Origin: Chloroflexota bacterium
GTDB taxonomy: Bacteria > Chloroflexota > UBA6077 > FW602-bin22 > JAMCYS01
Direction of reading: 5' to 3'
Length of the DNA stretch: 25,755 bases
Assembly (NCBI GenBank): GCA_023473795.1
Contig: JAMCYS010000152.1
Span: 1 to 25,755, forward strand
Shown: in pieces, positions 6,038-21,130 of the stretch
Numbering within the stretch: the stretch's first letter is position 1
Layout of the letters: each line of letters opens with the position of its first letter
Notes under the pieces: generated by a model
The model's input: only the letters and a program-made list of their open reading frames with translations
What the model was told of the DNA's origin: nothing
Database searches by the model: none
Program-made: the position numbers and the translations under genes

Positions 6038-7711
6038 CTAGAGCACCGGCACCTCCATATAGGATCCGTAGACCTCGCGCAGCGCCTGAGTCATCTCGCC
6101 CAGCGTGCAATAAGCACGCACCGCGTCCAGCAGATAGGGCATCACGTTCTCCCCAGCCGCGGCCGCCTTGCTCAGAGCGCGCAGGCAGCGCTCGGCCTGC
6201 GCCCGGTCGCGCCGGCGGCGCACCTCCGCCAGGCGCGCCAGCTGCCGGCGCTCGCCCTCGGGGTCCATGCGCAGCAGAGGCACCTGCACCGGCTCGTCCG
6301 TGGTAAAGCCGTTGACCCCCACGACGATGCGCTCCCCGCTCTCCACTTCTTGCTGGTAGCGGAACGATGCCTCGGCGATCTCCTGTTGCGGGTAGTTGAC
6401 GCCAATCGCCGCCACCATCCCGCCCAGACGGTCGATGCGCTCGATGTACTCACGCGCCTGGCGCTCCAGCTCGTCGGTCAACGCTTCGACGAAGTACGAT
6501 CCCCCCAATGGATCGACGGTGTTCGTCACGCCGCTCTCATTGGCGATGATCTGCTGAGTGCGTAGGGCCACCCGCACGGCGCTTGCCGAGGGCAGGGCCA
6601 GGGCCTCGTCCATGGAATTAGTGTGCAGGGACTGGGTACCGCCCAGCACCGCCGCCAGGGCCTGCAGGGCCACCCGCACCACGTTGTTCTCCGGCTGCTG
6701 GGCCGTCAACGAACAGCCCGCCGTCTGGGTATGGAAGCGCAGCATCCAGGAGCTCGGGTCCTTGGCGCCGAAGCGCTCGCGCATGATCTTGGCCCATAGC
6801 CGCCGGGCCGCCCGGTACTTGGCGATCTCCTCAAAGAAGTCGCTATGGGCGTTGAAGAAGAACGAGAGCCGAGGGGCGAAGTCATCCAGGGCCAGGCCGC
6901 AGTCGAGCGACGCCTGCACGTAGGCGATGCCATCGGCCAGTGTGAAGGCCAGTTCCTGCGCCGCGGTCGAGCCGGCCTCCCGGATGTGATAGCCGCTGAT
7001 CGACACCGTGTTCCATTTGGGCAGGTGGCGGCTGCCAAATTCGATGGTGTCAATCACCAGTTTGAGCGCCGGCTCGGGCGGAAACAGGAACTCCTTCTGC
7101 GCTGTGTACTCTTTCAGGATGTCGTTCTGAAGGGTGCCGCCGAGCTCACCGAACGGGATGCCCTGCTTCTCGGCCGTCACCAGGTACATCGCCCAGATGA
7201 TGGCCGCTGGGCCGTTGATCGTCATCGAGGTCGTGACCTCGTCGAGGCGGATCCCATCGAAGAGGATTTCCATGTCGGCCAGCGAAGAAACGGCCACTCC
7301 GCACTTGCCGAACTCCCCCAGCGCCTGGGGGTCATCGGTGTCGAGCCCATACAGAGTCGGCATATCGAAAGCCACCGACAGGCCGCTCTCGCCGTGAGAC
7401 AGCAGGTATTTGAAGCGCTCGTTCGTTTCTTCAGCGGCGCCAAAGCCGGCGAACAGGCGCATCGTCCAGAGCCGGCCGCGATACATCGTGGGGTGGACGC
7501 CCCGGGTGAAGGGATACTCGCCGGGGAAACCGATTTCCCGCTGATAGGCGGCGACCTCGTCCGCCCCGGGCTCGTAGAGTCTCTGGGTCTGTACCCCGGA
7601 GATGGTGGTGAACTCAGATCGGCGCTCGGGCAGGCGCTCCAGCGACTTCGCCAGAGTAGTCTTCTCCCAGCGCGCGCGGTCGGCGGCGAGCCGTTCGCGG
7701 TCGTCCTGCAT
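6038..7711 (-). CDS. icmA: Acyl-CoA mutase large (catalytic TIM-barrel) subunit with an isobutyryl-CoA-mutase-type active-site signature. In methylmalonyl-CoA mutase the corresponding positions are Tyr89 and Arg207; here they are Phe (TMRLFAGFG) and Gln ([12 protein letters not shown]).
   Basis: Strong similarity to the methylmalonyl-CoA mutase alpha catalytic domain throughout ([33 protein letters not shown]). Specificity residues were read from the alignment-equivalent motifs. There is no C-terminal B12 domain, so this is a split enzyme. Confidence 0.8.
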
Positions 7712-8239: not shown

Positions 8240-9757
8240 CTAGCCCTCGTGCCCGTTGCCGGCAGCCGGGGCCTTGGCAGTTGTGTCTTCCGCCTGCAAG
8301 TCGGCTAACGCCGGTATCTTGCGCAGAACGTCCTGCAACTTGAGCCCGGTGAGCGCCTCGATAACCGCCGGCATCTGGGCCATGATCTCGGTTATGTCCC
8401 GCGTAATCTTAGACGCTCCAGCGCCGTGACCGTCAGATCCGCCAATCATGACGATGCGGTCCGTCTTGCTGAGTGGTTCGGCGACGGCCCTGGCCAGCTC
8501 CGGCAGGCGCTCGACGATCATCTGGATTATGGCCGCCTCGTTGTACTCGTGCCAAGCCTCCGCCTTGCTCGACATAGCCGTCGCCTCGGCCGCGCCACGG
8601 GCCTTGGTCACGTCGGCGGCGGTCAGGCCGCGCGCGCGCTCGATGTCGACCTGCGCCAGGCCCTGCGCCCGCTCGGCGTCGGCCTGGCCCTGGCCCATCA
8701 GCCTTGCCGCCTCGGACTTGCCAGTCGCCTCGGCCCGCAGCTTGTACTGCTCGGCCTCGGCCAGCGTCTGGATACGAGTGCGCTCCGCCTCGGCCGGTTT
8801 CTGGACGTTGGCGACCAGTTCCCGCTCCCGACGGGCAACTTCCTTCTCCTGAACCAGGGTCTCCTGTTCCTTCTGGACTATCTGGACCTTCACCTCTTCG
8901 GCCTTGACGAGCTGCTCCGTCTTGTACTTCTGCAGGTCGTAGGCGAGGTCGGCCTCAGCCTTCTGCTGGTTGACTAGCATGTTGTACTGAGCGACCTTGA
9001 CGTTGTAGTCACGCTGCGACTCAGCAATTTTGGTCTGGGCCTCGATCTCGCCGATCTTGCCCAGCTGTTCGGCCTGCGCCCGCTTGATCTGGGTCTCCCG
9101 AGCGGCCTCGGCCTCGGCGATGGCCGCGTCGCGGCGCACCTCGGCGATGCGCGGCTTGCCCAGGGCCTCCAGGTAGCCCTGCTTGTCGTGCACGTCCTTG
9201 ATGGTGAAACTGATGACGGTGAAGCCCATGTTGCTGAAGTCGGTCGAGGATACTTCCTGTACCCGCTGGGCGAAGGCCTCGCGATTACGATAGACTTCCT
9301 CGACGGTCATCGTACCCATAATGGCCCGCAAGTGGCCCTCGAGGGTTTGCTTGACGACCTCTTTGCGCTCCTCGACGTTCTTGGAGAGGAACTGCTCTGC
9401 CGCGGTCGCGATCGAAACCAGGTCGCTTTGCACTTTGATCTGGGCCACGCCTTCCACGATGATGGGCACACCTTGCGAGGTGTAGACGTCCGGCGTGCCC
9501 ACGTCGATGGTCATCGTCTCCATCGACAGGGTCTTGAACGACTCGACGACCGGCATGACTATCGTGCCGCCGCCGCGCACGATGCGAAAGCCGACGTCCC
9601 GCGCCTGCCCACTCTCGTCGCGCAGCTTGCCGCCCCGACCATAGATGATCAGCGCCTCGTTGGGACCGACCTTACGATAGCGCGAGGCTGCCAACGCTAT
9701 GAGAAGAAAGATGCCTAGGACGATGCCTGCCACTAGCAGCGTGCTGGTGAAATCCAC
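8240..9757 (-). CDS. floT: Flotillin-like SPFH/band-7 protein (FloT/YuaG type) with N-terminal membrane anchor and Ala/Glu-rich coiled coil
   Basis: Close resemblance to B. subtilis YuaG along the SPFH domain (IVRGGGT, IATAAEQFL, GHLRAIMGTMTVEEVYRNRE, LGKPRIAEV). GTG start at 9757. The upstream nfeD partner is present. Confidence 0.9.
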   Translation of the reverse strand: MDFTSTLLVAGIVLGIFLLIALAASRYRKVGPNEALIIYGRGGKLRDESGQARDVGFRIVRGGGTIVMPVVESFKTLSMETMTIDVGTPDVYTSQGVPIIVEGVAQIKVQSDLVSIATAAEQFLSKNVEERKEVVKQTLEGHLRAIMGTMTVEEVYRNREAFAQRVQEVSSTDFSNMGFTVISFTIKDVHDKQGYLEALGKPRIAEVRRDAAIAEAEAARETQIKRAQAEQLGKIGEIEAQTKIAESQRDYNVKVAQYNMLVNQQKAEADLAYDLQKYKTEQLVKAEEVKVQIVQKEQETLVQEKEVARRERELVANVQKPAEAERTRIQTLAEAEQYKLRAEATGKSEAARLMGQGQADAERAQGLAQVDIERARGLTAADVTKARGAAEATAMSSKAEAWHEYNEAAIIQMIVERLPELARAVAEPLSKTDRIVMIGGSDGHGAGASKITRDITEIMAQMPAVIEALTGLKLQDVLRKIPALADLQAEDTTAKAPAAGNGHEG

Positions 9758-9822: not shown

Positions 9823-10449
9823 CTACCCCTCGTCAGAGGCCGAACCGAGGGCCTCGTCCTCCATTGACACTACCTCGGCCACACCCTTGTGTAAGCGTAC
9901 GATCGCCACCCTCGTGCCACTGGCCAAGGGCACGCCGCTGGCAGACCGCGCCGGCAATTGCATGCGGCTGCCACGGGCGGAGAAGACGATCTCGCCCAGC
10001 CCCTCGGCCGGAATGCTGACCCGCACCTTGGCCAGAGCCTGGGCCACCTCTCTCATGTCCGGCGAGCTACTGCCCTGGGCCCTCACTAGCGGCCGCCACA
10101 CCGCTAGGAAGAATGCCCCGGCAACCAGTACCGCCCCGACCGTGGCGAGAAGGAGCGAAAGCCAATCGGGCAGGCCAATATACCTGTAGGTCAACAGGCC
10201 AATGCCCCCCACGGCCAGAGAGAAAGCCGCTATGGTAAGAGAGTTGACCGGGGATACATGGTGGGCGCCGACGTCGTGGCCAGCGTCAAGCTCGTGCCCG
10301 CCGCCCAAGTCGTGCGACAAGTCCACGTCGTGGCCGCCGGCTATGTCGTGGCCGCCCAGACCACCGGCGAGCAAGCCGAACACGCCGTAGCCGAGCCCAA
10401 AGAGGAACGCCACCCAATAGAACAGTTCCAGCCCGTTTAGCCCACCCAT
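9823..10449 (-). CDS. nfeD: NfeD/YuaF-like membrane protein (3 TM segments plus C-terminal OB-fold beta-barrel), partner of flotillin. It contains an unusual His/Asp-rich GHD repeat loop.
   Basis: TM helices plus C-terminal VRVSIPAEGLGEIVFSARGSRMQLPARS...VAIVRLHKGVAEVV OB-like domain. Gene order nfeD-floT matches yuaF-yuaG. Strong RBS GGGAGGAGGG before ATG 10449. Confidence 0.75.
   Translation of the reverse strand: MGGLNGLELFYWVAFLFGLGYGVFGLLAGGLGGHDIAGGHDVDLSHDLGGGHELDAGHDVGAHHVSPVNSLTIAAFSLAVGGIGLLTYRYIGLPDWLSLLLATVGAVLVAGAFFLAVWRPLVRAQGSSSPDMREVAQALAKVRVSIPAEGLGEIVFSARGSRMQLPARSASGVPLASGTRVAIVRLHKGVAEVVSMEDEALGSASDEG
10255..10356 (-). repeat. In-frame nucleotide tandem repeats GTCGTG(G/C)CC(GCC) encoding GHD/HD units (GGHDIAGGHDVDLSHDLGGGHELDAGHDVGAHH) inside nfeD
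   Basis: gtcgtggcc/gtcgtgccc/gtcgtgcga motifs recur about 6 times at roughly 18-21 nt spacing on the plus strand. Their reverse complement encodes Gly-His-Asp. Confidence 0.6.
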
Positions 10450-10472
10450 GCCACCCTCCTCCCGCGGGCGCC

Positions 10473-11227
10473 CTAGCCGCGTTTGCCCTCGCGGTACTCC
10501 TGAGCGTAGCGCCGGTTGTTGCTGACCACCTGAGCGGCGAAGTCCCGCAGGTGATTCGTCACCGGCGCCAGCGACCGAGCCCGCTCCGGCGTGTCCACGA
10601 TCGCCCCTGCCGGCACCAGGCGCCCATCCGGTATCTCTACGTCGGAGATGAACGCGCCGTGCCAGACTACGCAGCCGCGTCCGATCGTGCTGTTCACCAC
10701 CATCGTCCGAAAGCCGACGAAAGCACCGTCGCCGATAGCCACCGGGCCGTGCACGAACGCTTGGTGGGCCAAGGATACGTTCTTCCCGACCCAGACGGCA
10801 TACTGCTGGCCGCCCACGACAACCGAGCGCCCTTCCATGGCGTGGACGACGACCCCGTCCTGCACGTTACTACCATCGCCAATGGCTATCGGCGCCCCGC
10901 TGTCACCCCTGATTGAGGACCCCGGGGCGACGAAGACCTCGGCCCCCAATTGTACGTCGCCCACCACGCTCGCGGCAGGACTGATGAAGGCGCCCCGACC
11001 GAGGCGAACGGTGCGACCCACCTCTGCCGCCGGCATGGCGGCTGCCGCGGGTGGCGCGGGCCGGGCCGGAGGAGCAGCGACCGGCGTCTGAGCCGCAAAC
11101 GCCTCGCTCCCTGGGGCATCCGGCTCGGTTAGAGAACGCCCCAGGTTACCCCCGCCAGCCGGCAGGTCTGAGCCCGGCATGGGCATGTAGCCGATGGGCT
11201 GCATGCCCCCTTTGGGTTGGCCCTCGC

Positions 11228-11231: not shown

Positions 11232-12919
<1,688 letters not shown>

Positions 12920-17611: not shown

Positions 17612-18802
17612 CTAGGCTAACTCGACGCTCAGGGCGACGGCCTCGCCCCCGCCGAGGCAGGCCACGGCCAGGCCGCGTTCGCCGCCTCGCTGGCGCAAGG
17701 CATAGATCAGTGTCGTCAAGATGCGCGCGCCGCTGGCGCCGATAGGATGGCCCAAGGCCACCGCGCCGCCGTGGACGTTTACCTTCTGCCAATCCCAGCC
17801 CAAGTCCTTGCCGTTGGCCAGCACCTGGGAGGCGAAGGCTTCGTTGATCTCGATGAGGTCGAAATCGTTCAGACCCAGACCGGTCTGGGACAGCAGTTTG
17901 CGAATGGCCAGCGGCGGGGCAGCGAAGAGCAGCAGCGGCTCCAGGGCAGCCGTGGCATAGCCCGTGACGCGCGCCAGCGCGGGCAGGCCGAGCTCCCGGC
18001 CGCGCCCGCCCTCGACTACCACTAGGGCGGCGGCGCCGTCGCTCAGGCCGGGGGCGTTGCCGGCCGTCACCGTGCCGCCCTCCGGCTGGAAGGCCGGCTG
18101 CAGACGCGCGAGCGCCTCCAGGCTCGTGTCGGGGCGGGGCGTCTCGTCGGCGGCGACGACCACGCTGCCCTTCTTCTGCGGCACCTCGACCGGAACGATC
18201 TCCGCCGCGAACCGGCCCGACGACGCCGCGGCGACGGCCTTGCGGTGGCTCGCCAGGGCGAACTCGTCCTGTTCGCGACGGCTAATACCATAGAGCTTGG
18301 CGATGTGTTCGGCGGAGTTGCCCATGTGGTGGTGCTCGAATGAGCACCAGAGGCCATCGTGTACCGTGGCGTCTACGATCTCGCCGTTGCCCAGACGGTA
18401 GCCGGTGCGGGCACGGGGCAGTAGGTAGGGGCCGTTGCTCATGCTCTCCATGCCCCCAGCCACGTAGATGGAGCCGTCTCCGGCCTTGATGGCTTGCGCC
18501 GCCAGCATGACCGCCTTCAGGCCCGAACCGCAGACCTTGTTGACGGTGACGGCCGGCACGCTCACGGGCACACCAGCCCGGACCGCGGCCTGGCGAGCAG
18601 GGGCCATGCCCACGCCCGCCTGGACGACGTTGCCCATTATCACTTCGTCCACGGCGGCGGGGTCGACACCCGCCCGGCGGATAGATTCACGAATGGCGAC
18701 GGCGCCCAACTCGGGCGCCGTTAGTGGTTGGAGGGCACCGAGGAAACGGCCCGTGGGAATGCGCGCGGCACTAGCGATCACAACCTTAGGGGAGTCCGCC
18801 AT
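17612..18802 (-). CDS. Acetyl-CoA C-acetyltransferase (thiolase II)
   Basis: VNKVCGSGLKAV (nucleophilic Cys), GHPIGASGARIL (His) and C-terminal Cys in ACLGGGEAVA. ATG at 18802 with GGGAGGAAGG RBS. The 25-aa ORF-track extension is rejected. Confidence 0.9.
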   Translation of the reverse strand: MADSPKVVIASAARIPTGRFLGALQPLTAPELGAVAIRESIRRAGVDPAAVDEVIMGNVVQAGVGMAPARQAAVRAGVPVSVPAVTVNKVCGSGLKAVMLAAQAIKAGDGSIYVAGGMESMSNGPYLLPRARTGYRLGNGEIVDATVHDGLWCSFEHHHMGNSAEHIAKLYGISRREQDEFALASHRKAVAAASSGRFAAEIVPVEVPQKKGSVVVAADETPRPDTSLEALARLQPAFQPEGGTVTAGNAPGLSDGAAALVVVEGGRGRELGLPALARVTGYATAALEPLLLFAAPPLAIRKLLSQTGLGLNDFDLIEINEAFASQVLANGKDLGWDWQKVNVHGGAVALGHPIGASGARILTTLIYALRQRGGERGLAVACLGGGEAVALSVELA

Positions 18803-18867
18803 TGCCTTCCTCCCTTGACGCAACTCCGCGCCTCGCCGTGCAGCGTCTGGCCCTGGGTATCCCGCAC

Positions 18868-18876
18868 ATAATAGCA
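18868..18876 (-). promoter_or_regulatory. Extended -10-like element TGCTATTAT (minus strand) about 66 nt upstream of the thiolase ATG
   Basis: Plus-strand ataatagca at 18868-18876. There is no clear -35, consistent with an extended -10 promoter. Inference only. Confidence 0.3.
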
Positions 18877-18963
18877 CAACGCAACCTGCCCCGCCAGAAC
18901 GAAGATCCCCTTCCCGCTAGGCAGGAAGGGGGTTGTCAGTAACCAGCAGATGTTGGTCTGTTG

Positions 18964-19155
18964 TTTGTGGTGAGCGCTCATCTGCCCCAGCGGCTATGGG
19001 GTCAGCGTTTTCCCGGGTGCCCGAAGAGGCACAAAGCACTAAAGTGCTCACTACGAACCCGTAGCACGGCTGCGTTTGTAGTGAGCGCTTTAGCGCTTTC
19101 CCCAGCGCATGAGGCGGCACGAAGCACTGAAGTGCTCACTGCGAGCCCGGAGTGC
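18964..19155. repeat. Two tandem copies (about 110 nt and about 82 nt) of a palindrome-rich intergenic element. Each unit has TTTGT(G/A)GTGAGCGCT ... CCCCAGCG ... GAGGC.CA.AAGCACT(A/G)AAGTGCTCACT(A/G)CGA.CCCG.
   Basis: Read directly. The palindromes are GTGAGCGCTCA (18970-18980), AGCACTAAAGTGCT (19035-19048), AGCGCTTTAGCGCT (19084-19097) and AGCACTGAAGTGCT (19123-19136), plus hairpin CCCCA-gcggcta-TGGGG (18985-19001). Unit 2 lacks about 30 nt present in unit 1. Confidence 0.6.
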
Positions 19156-19162
19156 GGCCGAG

Positions 19163-21130
19163 CTAGCACATCGGCGGGCGCTCGACCATCCTCTTCAATC
19201 GCTCGACGTTGCGACGCAGGGCCTGCAACTCCTTCACCCGGGCGTCGGGATCCTCCAAGGCCTGGTAGATGACTGCCCCGTCGCACTTATCGGGAACAGG
19301 CAGTTCGGCCACGTGGCAGACCGTGGGCACCAGATCGGTGAGCCAGACGTTGCGCTCGATCACCACGCCCTGCCTGATGCCGGGGCCGGCGAACATTATC
19401 AGGCCGCGCAGGTCGCCAAAGCCGAACTTGTTGGTCGTCAGGTAGGGGCCATGCTCCTTGCCGAAGCGTGGGTCCTCGGCGTAGATCACGTCGCCCGCTC
19501 TGGGGCCCCAGATGCCTAAGATACGGGCGTCCTCGTTCTTCAACGCCAGAGCGACCGGGTGCAGGCCGGTCTGGGGATCGACGTACTCGAGGAGGGCTTT
19601 GATGATTTCATCGCGGACCTTCTCGTACTCCTCTCCCGGCTCGACGATGCCCTGTGGGTCTCGGCCCTTGACGTTCACGTAGATGTGAACCGTGCGCTGG
19701 CTCACGGCCTTCGTCTTGGACCAGTCGACTTTCCGCACCTTCGGCATGAGGCCAGCGCCCTTCGTTTCGAGCCCGGCCGCCTTGTCGCCCGGCTCCTCCG
19801 GCACATAGGCCAGCAGGCCGGCCTTCGCCAGAATCGAACCGACGTCGAACTTGTGGCCGCGCGCCTTGACTCCGTGGTCCGACATGACAACCACCAACGC
19901 ATCGTCGCCGGCCGCCTCGATGATCTCGCCCAGGCACCGGTCCACGCCCTGATGCAGCCTTAGCTCGATGTCCTGGTAGTAAGGAATCAGCTCTTGATTC
20001 CGCGCCAGCAGAGGCTCCAGCTCGACCGAGAAGGTGTGGTAGATCCAGTCGATGGTGTGGATGTGGAGGAAATACATATCCCACGGCTTCTGGAAGAGGG
20101 TCTTGGTGGCGTCCACCAGCCAGTTGTGGTGCAGGTCGTAGGCCTCGACCAGCGTCTGGCCGTCGATCCACTCCGCCAGGAAGGCCTCGTAGGCCGTGCG
20201 AGCGGTGGGCAAGCCGCGCTCGGACGTAATCTCTTGCTCCAGCTCGGCCGGGAAGCCCCAGCCCGAGAGAGAGAAGATGCCCGGGCAGTAGACACGGAAC
20301 TGTTGGGCGTCAGGCGAGAGCTCGAGCAACTTGAAGCGCGTCGCCGCCTGCTTGGGGCCCTGCTCTGTCTCGAAGGTATCGTAGACGTTCGGGCTCCACT
20401 CGCCGACCTTGAGGCGAGCGTAGGCGCCGGCCTTGGTCTTGTCGCGGGCGATGACCACCGTATCGAAGGCCGAGCCGCCCGACTTGTCGACCAGCACGTA
20501 CCAGGTTATCGGCTGAACCGGGATCTTGGGCCGCCAGAGGTTGACGTTGACCTTGGCCTCGAGGGCCTGCGGGCCGTGCTCCACGCCCTGCCAGCCGCTA
20601 GCCTTCTGCCACACCACCTCGCTAAAGTGAGGGTAGTACTCTGTGGAGAGCAGTATGTCCTGCGCGAGGAGCGTTGAGGTCAGGTCCTCGATGGGTATGC
20701 CCTCGCGCCAGTCGGTGATGTTCAGGCCATAGCCGGCGATCTGGTAGCCTTCCTTCATCCGCTTGGGCCAGCTGGTGGGCCAGTTCATCACGATGCTGCG
20801 TTTGCCGGCGCGCTCGCCCGCCTCCCAGATGGTCTCAGCCGCGATGTCGCGCGAATCGAAGCCTTGGTGGGTCACATCCAGGGGCGTTCCTGGAGTGTGC
20901 ACATCGAAATCGGTAATGCCGTGGGTGCCCGGCCAGGCGCCCGTGGCGATCGAGGTCCAGTTGGGGGGCGTGATCGTCGGGAAGGGCACCAGGCCATTCT
21001 CACAAAACACGCCGCGGTCCATCAACTTCTTCAGTGCCGGTAGCTTGCCCTCTTGCGCCCATTTGAAGATGGTAGGCGCGACGGGCGAGTCGATGCCCAG
21101 GAACAGCACTTTGCTCGGGGCTTTGCTCAT
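19163..21130 (-). CDS. Alkaline-phosphatase-superfamily protein of the nucleotide pyrophosphatase/phosphodiesterase (NPP, type I phosphodiesterase) family; no signal peptide, so predicted cytoplasmic (655 aa)
   Basis: TITPPNWTSIATGAWPGTHGI matches the NPP nucleophile-Thr motif (TxTxPNHxSIxTG type). ATG at 21130 with GGAGGAG RBS. The 78-aa upstream extension in the ORF track is rejected. Confidence 0.7.
   Translation of the reverse strand: MSKAPSKVLFLGIDSPVAPTIFKWAQEGKLPALKKLMDRGVFCENGLVPFPTITPPNWTSIATGAWPGTHGITDFDVHTPGTPLDVTHQGFDSRDIAAETIWEAGERAGKRSIVMNWPTSWPKRMKEGYQIAGYGLNITDWREGIPIEDLTSTLLAQDILLSTEYYPHFSEVVWQKASGWQGVEHGPQALEAKVNVNLWRPKIPVQPITWYVLVDKSGGSAFDTVVIARDKTKAGAYARLKVGEWSPNVYDTFETEQGPKQAATRFKLLELSPDAQQFRVYCPGIFSLSGWGFPAELEQEITSERGLPTARTAYEAFLAEWIDGQTLVEAYDLHHNWLVDATKTLFQKPWDMYFLHIHTIDWIYHTFSVELEPLLARNQELIPYYQDIELRLHQGVDRCLGEIIEAAGDDALVVVMSDHGVKARGHKFDVGSILAKAGLLAYVPEEPGDKAAGLETKGAGLMPKVRKVDWSKTKAVSQRTVHIYVNVKGRDPQGIVEPGEEYEKVRDEIIKALLEYVDPQTGLHPVALALKNEDARILGIWGPRAGDVIYAEDPRFGKEHGPYLTTNKFGFGDLRGLIMFAGPGIRQGVVIERNVWLTDLVPTVCHVAELPVPDKCDGAVIYQALEDPDARVKELQALRRNVERLKRMVERPPMC

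Follow-up and report, generated by a model that had tools for sequence, protein, structure and literature searches.

Two tandem REP doublets behind an NPP-like gene of a Chloroflexota bacterium, very probably a selfish insertion of a GTAG-tagged family shared with Cyanobacteria

The window analysed here is a stretch of 25,755 nucleotides from an uncultured Chloroflexota bacterium (contig JAMCYS010000152.1, assembly GCA_023473795.1), and the element in question is a pair of palindrome-rich repeat units at positions 18963-19147, interpreted here as a cluster of repetitive extragenic palindromic (REP) sequences. The units are located inside a 360-nt gap between two minus-strand genes. One is an NPP-like gene of the Phosphodiest/alkaline-phosphatase family (19163-21130, 655 aa; Pfam PF01663, 1.1e-34), whose TAG stop codon (19165-19163) is separated from the nearest REP arm by 15 nt. 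The other is a thiolase gene (17612-18802, 396 aa; Pfam Thiolase_N/C), the first of a CoA-pathway cluster, whose exact product is present on 15 contigs, including GCA_023382155.1 and GCA_027372045.1. A GntR/FCD regulator gene is found two genes upstream. The context given in a preliminary description of this DNA was accurate: the NPP-like stop is at 19163-19165, the thiolase start at 18802 and an extended -10 element at 18868-18876.

A repeat search of the window recovered a 67-nt direct repeat (19004-19070 and 19092-19158, 78% identity) and a 16-nt direct repeat (18963-18978 and 19074-19089, 94% identity), which together define two tandem units, as the preliminary description had claimed. The palindromes noticed at that stage are also real: inverted repeats of 26 nt (19033-19058 and 19074-19099, 88%) and 19 nt (19080-19098 and 19122-19140, 84%) were found. 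The lower GC content was similarly borne out, at 0.56-0.61 in the units against 0.65-0.80 in the flanking genes. The core AAGCACTNAAGTGCTCACTRCGA is present in two exact copies and one inverted copy with three mismatches, where shuffles of the window lead one to expect 0.00, and the expectation for GTTTGTRGTGAGCGCT is 0.29, whereas three copies are seen. Rather than a ∼100-nt stretch dotted with palindromes, each unit is best viewed as two ∼25-nt arms in inverted orientation that flank a variable spacer. The distance between the outer tags is 88 nt in unit 1 (18967-19054) and 65 nt in unit 2 (19078-19142), and the unit spacing in the window is 88/111 nt. The repeat search detected no direct repeat (target-site duplication) flanking either unit. 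Tandem Repeats Finder did not report the two units, its sole report being AGCGCTTT in two copies, because they are too divergent and differ by indels.

The intact arm follows the pattern GTTYGTAGT-GAGCRC-TTNA-GYGCTY. After a 5' flank, GTTY, come the GTAG tag, a single T and a hairpin of 6 bp closed by a 4-nt loop; the top of the hairpin (C-TTNA-G) is conserved, and its lower stem can covary freely. In unit 1, the left arm (18963-18985, plus strand), recognised by its match to GTTTGTRGTGAGCGCT, is degenerate; its tag reads GTGG, and all that is left of its hairpin is the 8-nt palindrome GAGCGCTC, apparently GAGC[GCTTTAGC]GCTC minus 8 nt at the hairpin top. The spacer that follows (18986-19030) holds two small hairpins, evident in the sequence and on folding: GTGCC..GGCAC at 19017-19032, and CCCCA..TGGGG at 18985-19001, the latter being the extra hairpin CCCCA-gcggcta-TGGGG already ascribed to this unit. 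The right arm of unit 1 (19031-19059, minus strand) is intact, with the sequence GGTTCGTAGT-GAGCAC-TTTA-GTGCTT. A linker, CGTAGCACGGCTG (19060-19072), separates the units; the direct repeat runs through it, and it was duplicated with the unit (compare 19148-19160). Unit 2 comprises an intact left arm, CGTTTGTAGT-GAGCGC-TTTA-GCGCTT (19073-19101, plus strand), the spacer CCCCAGCGCATGAGGCG (19102-19118), and a right arm, GGCTCGCAGT-GAGCAC-TTCA-GTGCTT (19119-19147, minus strand), with a tag mutated to GCAG. Thus, GTAGT is retained at the arms tagged at 19078 (plus strand) and 19054 (minus strand), and the remaining two carry GCAG and GTGG.

When RNA folding of both strands was compared with shuffled sequences, each strand folded better than its shuffles (z = -5.1 for the plus strand, z = -4.0 for the minus strand). 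As single-stranded DNA, the two intact arms form hairpins (19031-19059, z = -2.9; 19073-19101, z = -3.1), and the truncated arm at 18963-18985 forms none. On the plus strand, the antisense strand of the genes, each unit forms a single long hairpin of the REPIN type (REP doublet forming a hairpin; concept of Bertels and Rainey, PMC3116915) through G-T/G-U pairs. On the mRNA-sense strand, A-C mismatches bar this long hairpin, and small hairpins or a cross-unit hairpin form instead.

Comparison with related genomes shows that the units are not a fixed part of this locus. Six contigs match the window at 99.8-99.99% identity, and in the intergenic region they show no difference from it beyond one mismatch in two of them (L117 and L119). 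Three relatives (L121, L122 and L123), with NPP-like proteins of 84, 80 and 81% identity, keep the order NPP-like, thiolase, 3HCDH, carboxyltransferase and the upstream GntR gene, the last as two open reading frames (ORFs) in L122. Their intergenic regions measure 213, 254 and 219 nt, against 360 nt in the host. In a four-way alignment of these syntenic loci, the last NPP-like codons, TTGTGCTATnATG (the extended -10), the leader and the ribosome-binding site (RBS) with the ATG all align, and the ∼190 nt with the two units have no counterpart in the three relatives. Because gene order, thiolase promoter, leader and RBS all persist in the relatives without the units, the units are a lineage-specific insertion and not a conserved operator or RNA. 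Presence/absence polymorphism among related genomes is the expectation for a mobile insertion, and it is what the comparison revealed.

The same alignment points to what is conserved here. The extended -10 of the thiolase gene, TTGTGCTATTATG (18867-18879, minus strand; core TGCTATTAT, 18868-18876), is near-invariant, and it lies downstream of the REP units without overlapping them. The thiolase RBS, AGGGAGGAAGG (18804-18815, minus strand), is also kept. Both are retained in three relatives whose remaining intergenic sequence differs throughout, and by this conservation they would constitute the real regulatory core of the locus. A terminator scan identified one terminator-like GC-rich hairpin on the gene (minus) strand, CCCCTTCCTGCCTAGCGGGAAGGGG followed by ATCTTCGTTC (18931-18907). 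It is the only such site on that strand and is located downstream of, and outside, the units; plus-strand terminator-like sites are weak and antisense. This hairpin is the probable 3' end of the NPP-like transcript, which would place the REP units in the NPP-like 3' untranslated region (UTR). Hairpins of the form CCCCCTTC...GAAGGGGG can be read by eye in the alignment soon after the stop codon in L121 and L122; a strict terminator scan of the relatives did not flag them, so conservation of the terminator is inferred only. The insertion most likely occurred between the NPP-like stop codon and the terminator, that is, in the 3' UTR and upstream of the thiolase promoter.

The arms are not private to this locus. 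The search for other copies was run on other genomes, one per species, with the exact 22-nt arm AGCRCTNAAGYGCTCACTRCRA, and it returned a multi-copy result of at least 114 stretches. Almost all of those listed are from Cyanobacteria (Nostocales, Coleofasciculus and others) or Chloroflexota (Anaerolineae, Caldilineaceae, Dehalococcoidia and unclassified metagenome-assembled genomes, MAGs), including the Dehalococcoidia MAGs L013 and L101. Among the matches listed, the exact arm is found on up to five contigs per genome (MAG-37, P_ANAE and Coleofasciculus C1-SOL-03), and Scytonema HK-05 carries three sites 0.4-2 Mb apart. Over 24-25 nt, the left arm of unit 2 matches exactly the arms of many loci in Cyanobacteria and Chloroflexota. 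At the listed loci a second, inverted arm stands 0-50 nt away, and the hairpins of these partners vary by genome (GGACTTTAGTCC, GCGCTTTAGCGC, GCACTTCAGTGC, GGCTTCAGCC, GGGCTTCAGCCC) with pairing always kept. In Chloroflexota the doublets are often repeated as arrays with a period of 86-101 nt.

A census of the listed loci (231 arms) counted 77 head-to-head pairs, with tags outside, against 20 tail-to-tail and 10 head-to-tail pairs; the outer length of the head-to-head pairs is 26-77 nt (5th-95th percentile). Only 46 of the 231 arms (20%) fall within ORFs of at least 150 aa, which make up 78% of the DNA of these loci. The window units are likewise extragenic: a stop codon (19163) precedes them, and the next start codon (18802) follows. 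When whole units were compared by BLAST with all fetched loci, matches were confined to the arms (at most 27 nt), the spacers were unmatched and no closer REPIN relative was found, which indicates that the spacers are lineage-specific. A generic scan for GTAG plus a hairpin, applied to the window and the relatives, gave chance hairpins alone outside the units.

The partner arms provide an independent test of the hairpin. They do not overlap the search pattern and were chosen on GTAGT and the loop-closing CT..AG alone, leaving the stem free, which avoids circularity. Other genomes supplied 87 distinct partner arms, in which pairing holds in 90.6% of stem cells, compared with 68.5% in shuffled arms (none of 500 shuffles reaches the observed value) and 24-48% when the pairing partner is slid. 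Changes on both sides of a pair are found in 122 cells, at five of the six stem pairs. The hairpin stem is maintained across copies with strong covariation. A covariance model (R1) built from the 87 arms and run unfiltered over the window recovered three of its four arms: 19031-19059 (38.1 bits, E 4.1e-7), 19073-19101 (35.9 bits, E 1.2e-6) and 19119-19147 (24.4 bits, E 4.8e-4). The fourth arm, at 18963-18985, scored 7.7 bits (E 2.8). In the rest of the 25.7 kb nothing exceeded ∼10 bits except palindromic reverse readings of the same hairpins, and R1 found no arm in 66 kb of the syntenic relatives' loci. The window arms belong to a widespread GTAG-tagged REP family.

This family has a partner enzyme. 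Four loci fetched by DNA pattern carry a ∼200-aa ORF with the motif LPNHYHLL adjoining the repeats, a REP-associated tyrosine transposase (RAYT). In a Caldilineaceae MAG (L084), at least seven REPIN units of 89 nt each run directly into the RAYT start codon, and in a Coleofasciculus locus (L032) two REP doublets lie ∼30-150 nt upstream of it. The RAYTs pass the NCBIfam equivalog model for REP-associated tyrosine transposases (NF047646; 80.5-101.2 bits, cut-off 80), and the same proteins reach 17-23 bits on the IS200 model (cut-off 55). Invariant motifs are N84 H85 Y86 H87 (NHYH) and N144 Y145. H147 Y148 N149 P150 (NY[IL]HYNPVKH), and the N-terminus is proline-rich (GYPPHAPPHP). By these motifs, the RAYTs that flank the REP arms match the diagnostic features of TnpA_REP subclass 2.8 (Quentin et al. 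2018).

A database search with a Chloroflexota RAYT returned 1752 relatives at E <= 1e-10, of ∼198 aa and some named Chloroflexota or Anaerolineaceae; 120 of them were listed. Three Chloroflexota RAYT loci were picked by protein, with no DNA pattern used, and then scanned with R1. The matches crowd both sides of the RAYT gene and are nearly absent from the other 10-20 kb. Altogether, R1 matches occur on both sides of the RAYT, within a few hundred nucleotides, at seven of seven loci (L032, L033, L084, L111, L127, L128 and L129), four of which are from Chloroflexota, including Caldilineaceae and Anaerolineaceae. The array periods at these loci, 89, 92, 99 and 106 nt, resemble the unit spacing of the window. 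The REP family is physically tied to one RAYT clade in two phyla, and the REP/MITE-like option of the preliminary description (MITE, miniature inverted-repeat transposable element) is supported: the arms are those of a GTAG-tagged REP family that flanks RAYT genes.

Several further features of the RAYT loci were observed. At L032 (1782-1806), the last base of the RAYT TAG stop codon is the first base of the downstream REP hairpin. In two Nostoc loci (L033, 6739-7371, minus strand; L111, 5944-6579, plus strand), the RAYT contains an in-frame 12-codon insertion (…GVSGNEETSAEALTTN…) whose DNA is the REP arm AGCGCTGAAGCGCTCACTACAA; the other six aligned RAYTs have no REP insertion. The Nostoc insertion fits the "REP insertion in tnpA_REP" described for subclass 2.8 (PMC6006769). 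At L129 (7138-11311), the RAYT (10001-10594) and REPIN arrays with 99-nt and 89-nt periods are located directly downstream of type III CRISPR-Cas genes (Cas10/Csm1, Csx3, Cas_NE0113). Most of the RAYT homologues listed (120 of 1752) are on very short contigs of ∼1-3 kb. This is expected if flanking REP arrays break metagenome assemblies, and a census of the family in MAGs would be biased accordingly.

The family agrees closely with REP systems described before. In the REPs, BIMEs (bacterial interspersed mosaic elements) and REPINs of Escherichia coli and Pseudomonas fluorescens, as here, a 5' GTAG tag adjoins a short imperfect palindrome, doublets are inverted around a spacer, clusters grow by tandem reiteration with some flank, copies are extragenic and preferentially downstream of genes, and the cognate HUH/Y1 gene is flanked by the same repeats. 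The differences lie in the arm, here GTAGT-GAGCRC-TTNA-GYGCTC with a 6-bp stem and a 4-nt loop; in the hosts, Chloroflexota and Cyanobacteria instead of Gammaproteobacteria; and in activity, which is putative here. The E. coli TnpA_REP binds its own REP. The RAYTs of Bertels groups 2 and 3 carry DHLH/DH[LF]H, in contrast to the NHYH subclass found here. Subclass 2.8, as defined in PMC6006769, combines NHYH, YIHYNP and a proline-rich N-terminus with flanking GT[AG]G REPs, some members having a REP insertion; its REPtrons share with the present RAYTs these motifs and the length of ∼198 aa, and with the present loci the GT[AG]G REPs and the in-frame insertion seen in Nostoc. That study lists eight members, all cyanobacterial, and merely remarks on relatives in other phyla, whereas 1752 relatives were found here. 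The window itself contains the REPs with no RAYT encoded there.

The study of Di Nocera et al. 2013 (PMC3733652) describes GTAG REPs in both Cyanobacteria (GTAG-12/15/16) and Chloroflexi (GTAG-23, in Thermomicrobium, Roseiflexus and Chloroflexus), mostly as head-to-head dimers or clusters downstream of genes. Like the present family, these have a GTAG tag, stems of 6-9 bp with complementary variants and head-to-head dimers 20-100 bp apart; the Chloroflexi elements are "largely clustered" and lie between unidirectional or convergent genes. GYAG, GTRG and GTGG are given there as accepted tag variants, and tandem duplication of a doublet together with its flank is described for REP clusters. Peptides listed there for intragenic GTAG-23 copies suggest a different and more GC-rich arm. 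Other mobile elements resemble the units less. IS200/IS605 elements and PATEs (palindrome-associated transposable elements) share a single-strand hairpin recognised by an HUH/Y1 enzyme and the lack of a target-site duplication. However, the ends of IS200/IS605 are two different subterminal hairpins flanking tnpA (and tnpB) rather than short symmetric doublets, and the present RAYTs fall far below the IS200 cut-off and pass the RAYT model. The MITEs Nezha (of cyanobacteria), RUP and ERIC are likewise small, non-coding, intergenic, bounded by inverted termini and foldable when transcribed, but they derive from insertion sequences with DDE transposases and make target-site duplications, whereas no such duplication was found here and the partner is a tyrosine HUH transposase.

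Taken together, the element is very probably a cluster of GTAG-superfamily REPs, formed by two tandem head-to-head doublets of the REPIN type with tags outside and lineage-specific spacers, and hence a selfish insertion. It is an ordinary REPIN and not a dedicated regulator of the neighbouring operon. By analogy with known REP/RAYT systems, the arms would fold as hairpins in single-stranded DNA, and a RAYT (HUH/Y1, NHYH/YIHYNP clade) would recognise the hairpin and the GTAG tag, cut and rejoin the strand, and so spread REPs and REPINs to new extragenic sites. At this locus a doublet probably inserted between the NPP-like stop codon and the terminator hairpin, and then duplicated in tandem with ∼15 nt of flank. 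The direct repeat runs ∼15 nt past the arms (CCCG.AG..CGGC), which argues that the second unit arose by tandem duplication of the doublet with its flank. Later decay is indicated by the truncation of one arm, by mutation of two tags and by the 78% identity between units. The element would probably be co-transcribed as a 3' UTR, and if it alters mRNA stability or read-through into the thiolase operon, this would be a by-product rather than the reason for its presence.

Some observations weigh against this interpretation. Only one cluster was found by R1 in ∼33 kb of host DNA (the window plus the 7.5 kb of L124 beyond the window start). A metagenome scan with the spacer-plus-arm sequence GGCACRAAGCACTNAAGTGCTCACT gave 0 matches and also failed to recover the host locus itself, so that it has no bearing on copy number. 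With two of the four tags departing from GTAG (GTGG and GCAG) and one hairpin truncated, this copy may be immobile. Furthermore, we know of no experimental demonstration of transposition by the NHYH RAYT clade.

The units could be an orphan relic, either left over and decaying or brought in as a fragment by horizontal transfer, whose genome has no cognate RAYT and few or no other copies, a possibility that is real though doubtful. The single cluster in 33 kb of host DNA and the absence of arms from 66 kb of relatives would fit a relic, as would the two mutated tags, the truncated hairpin and a GC content below that of the genome. Against this, a 30-kb stretch with few REPs is nothing unusual even where the genome bears them, the conserved sequence of the arms by itself dictates the low GC, and other Chloroflexota, the Dehalococcoidia MAGs L013 and L101 included, carry the family. 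It is unlikely, to a degree somewhat beyond the relic, that the units were retained as a cis-acting RNA, a reading compatible with REP origin, in which REP hairpins of the 3' UTR protect the NPP-like mRNA from 3' exonucleases, or serve to attenuate or insulate transcription ahead of the thiolase promoter, and were kept for that reason. On the gene strand, the units stand after the stop codon and before the terminator-like hairpin, as such an RNA would require; shuffled sequences fold less well than the region, six near-identical assemblies carry it unchanged, and REPs of other bacteria are reported to act in this way (PMC3733652). However, those six assemblies are so alike overall that their shared units say nothing about selection, and the locus works without the units, since they are absent from the three closest syntenic relatives. 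In addition, the mRNA-sense strand folds worse than the antisense strand, and the arms are decaying.

The remaining possibilities are far weaker. The operator array raised in the preliminary description, in which the repeated palindromes would be bound by the local GntR/FCD protein or some other transcription factor to control the thiolase/CoA-pathway operon, is highly improbable. The arms are indeed palindromic with GT..AC-like half-sites and a GntR gene is at hand two genes upstream, yet three syntenic relatives have the same GntR gene, gene order and promoter without the units. The arms also recur in many unrelated contexts (at least 114 stretches) in two phyla and flank transposase genes, and more than 85 nt separate the units from the -10 downstream of them, the terminator of the previous gene also lying downstream of the units. 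A pair of small structured RNAs, also raised at the outset, fares no better, and the chance that the units are a small RNA gene pair, a riboswitch or a DDE-transposase MITE with terminal inverted repeats is equally slight. Their strong predicted structure, and inverted termini that resemble terminal inverted repeats, are what speaks for this group. With gathering thresholds, Rfam gave no match anywhere in the window, and a scan of 18700-19300 at E <= 10 gave only chance miRNA-like hairpins (E 1.9-7.6); moreover, the region has no promoter-like site, and the units are absent from the syntenic loci. As for a DDE-type MITE, the inverted termini come without a target-site duplication and consist of GTAG plus a hairpin, which is associated with Y1/HUH RAYT genes and not with DDE transposases. 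The proposed terminator cluster is not supported: the units contain no GC-rich hairpin with a T-run on the gene strand, and the only terminator-like hairpin of that strand is the one downstream of them.

Other features of the host DNA were recorded in passing. A 33-nt tandem repeat of ∼2.2 copies (77-80% matches) is found at 8624-8696, within a minus-strand ORF of the Band_7 family (8240-9757). Two genes of the methylmalonyl-CoA-mutase family, paralogues in one cluster, share ∼1 kb at 77% nucleotide identity (6486-7533 and ∼11690-12740, the latter 13019-14066 in L115). Between two near-identical host assemblies, L124 (2996-3568) has, relative to L125, an extra 190-aa short-chain-dehydrogenase ORF upstream of one of 243 aa, which could be a duplication or an assembly difference.

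For the locus, identification of the units as REPs removes a tempting false trail, since the CoA-pathway operon has neither an operator nor a riboswitch in these palindromes, which should be masked as repeats in annotation and motif searches. Similarly, REPIN arrays with 86-106-nt units can be confused with CRISPR arrays or small-RNA genes, as the array beside type III cas genes at L129 illustrates. What is new is mild and concerns the family level only: the REP/RAYT pair extends far beyond the eight cyanobacterial members of the original description, and it is widespread in Chloroflexota. REPIN-RAYT systems are currently viewed as almost strictly vertically inherited and confined to single lineages. 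The near-identical arm across Cyanobacteria and Chloroflexota leaves room for horizontal spread. We would advance only tentatively, and as improbable on present evidence, that one REPIN-RAYT lineage, with this arm and RAYTs that are 57-68% identical, is common to Cyanobacteria and several Chloroflexota classes and recently entered the host lineage, the recent entry being suggested by the three relatives with an empty site. If repeated horizontal transfer between both phyla were true, it would contradict the view of vertical inheritance within single lineages. The REP/RAYT clade could serve as a second, phylogenetically remote model for the coexistence of REPINs, transposase and host.

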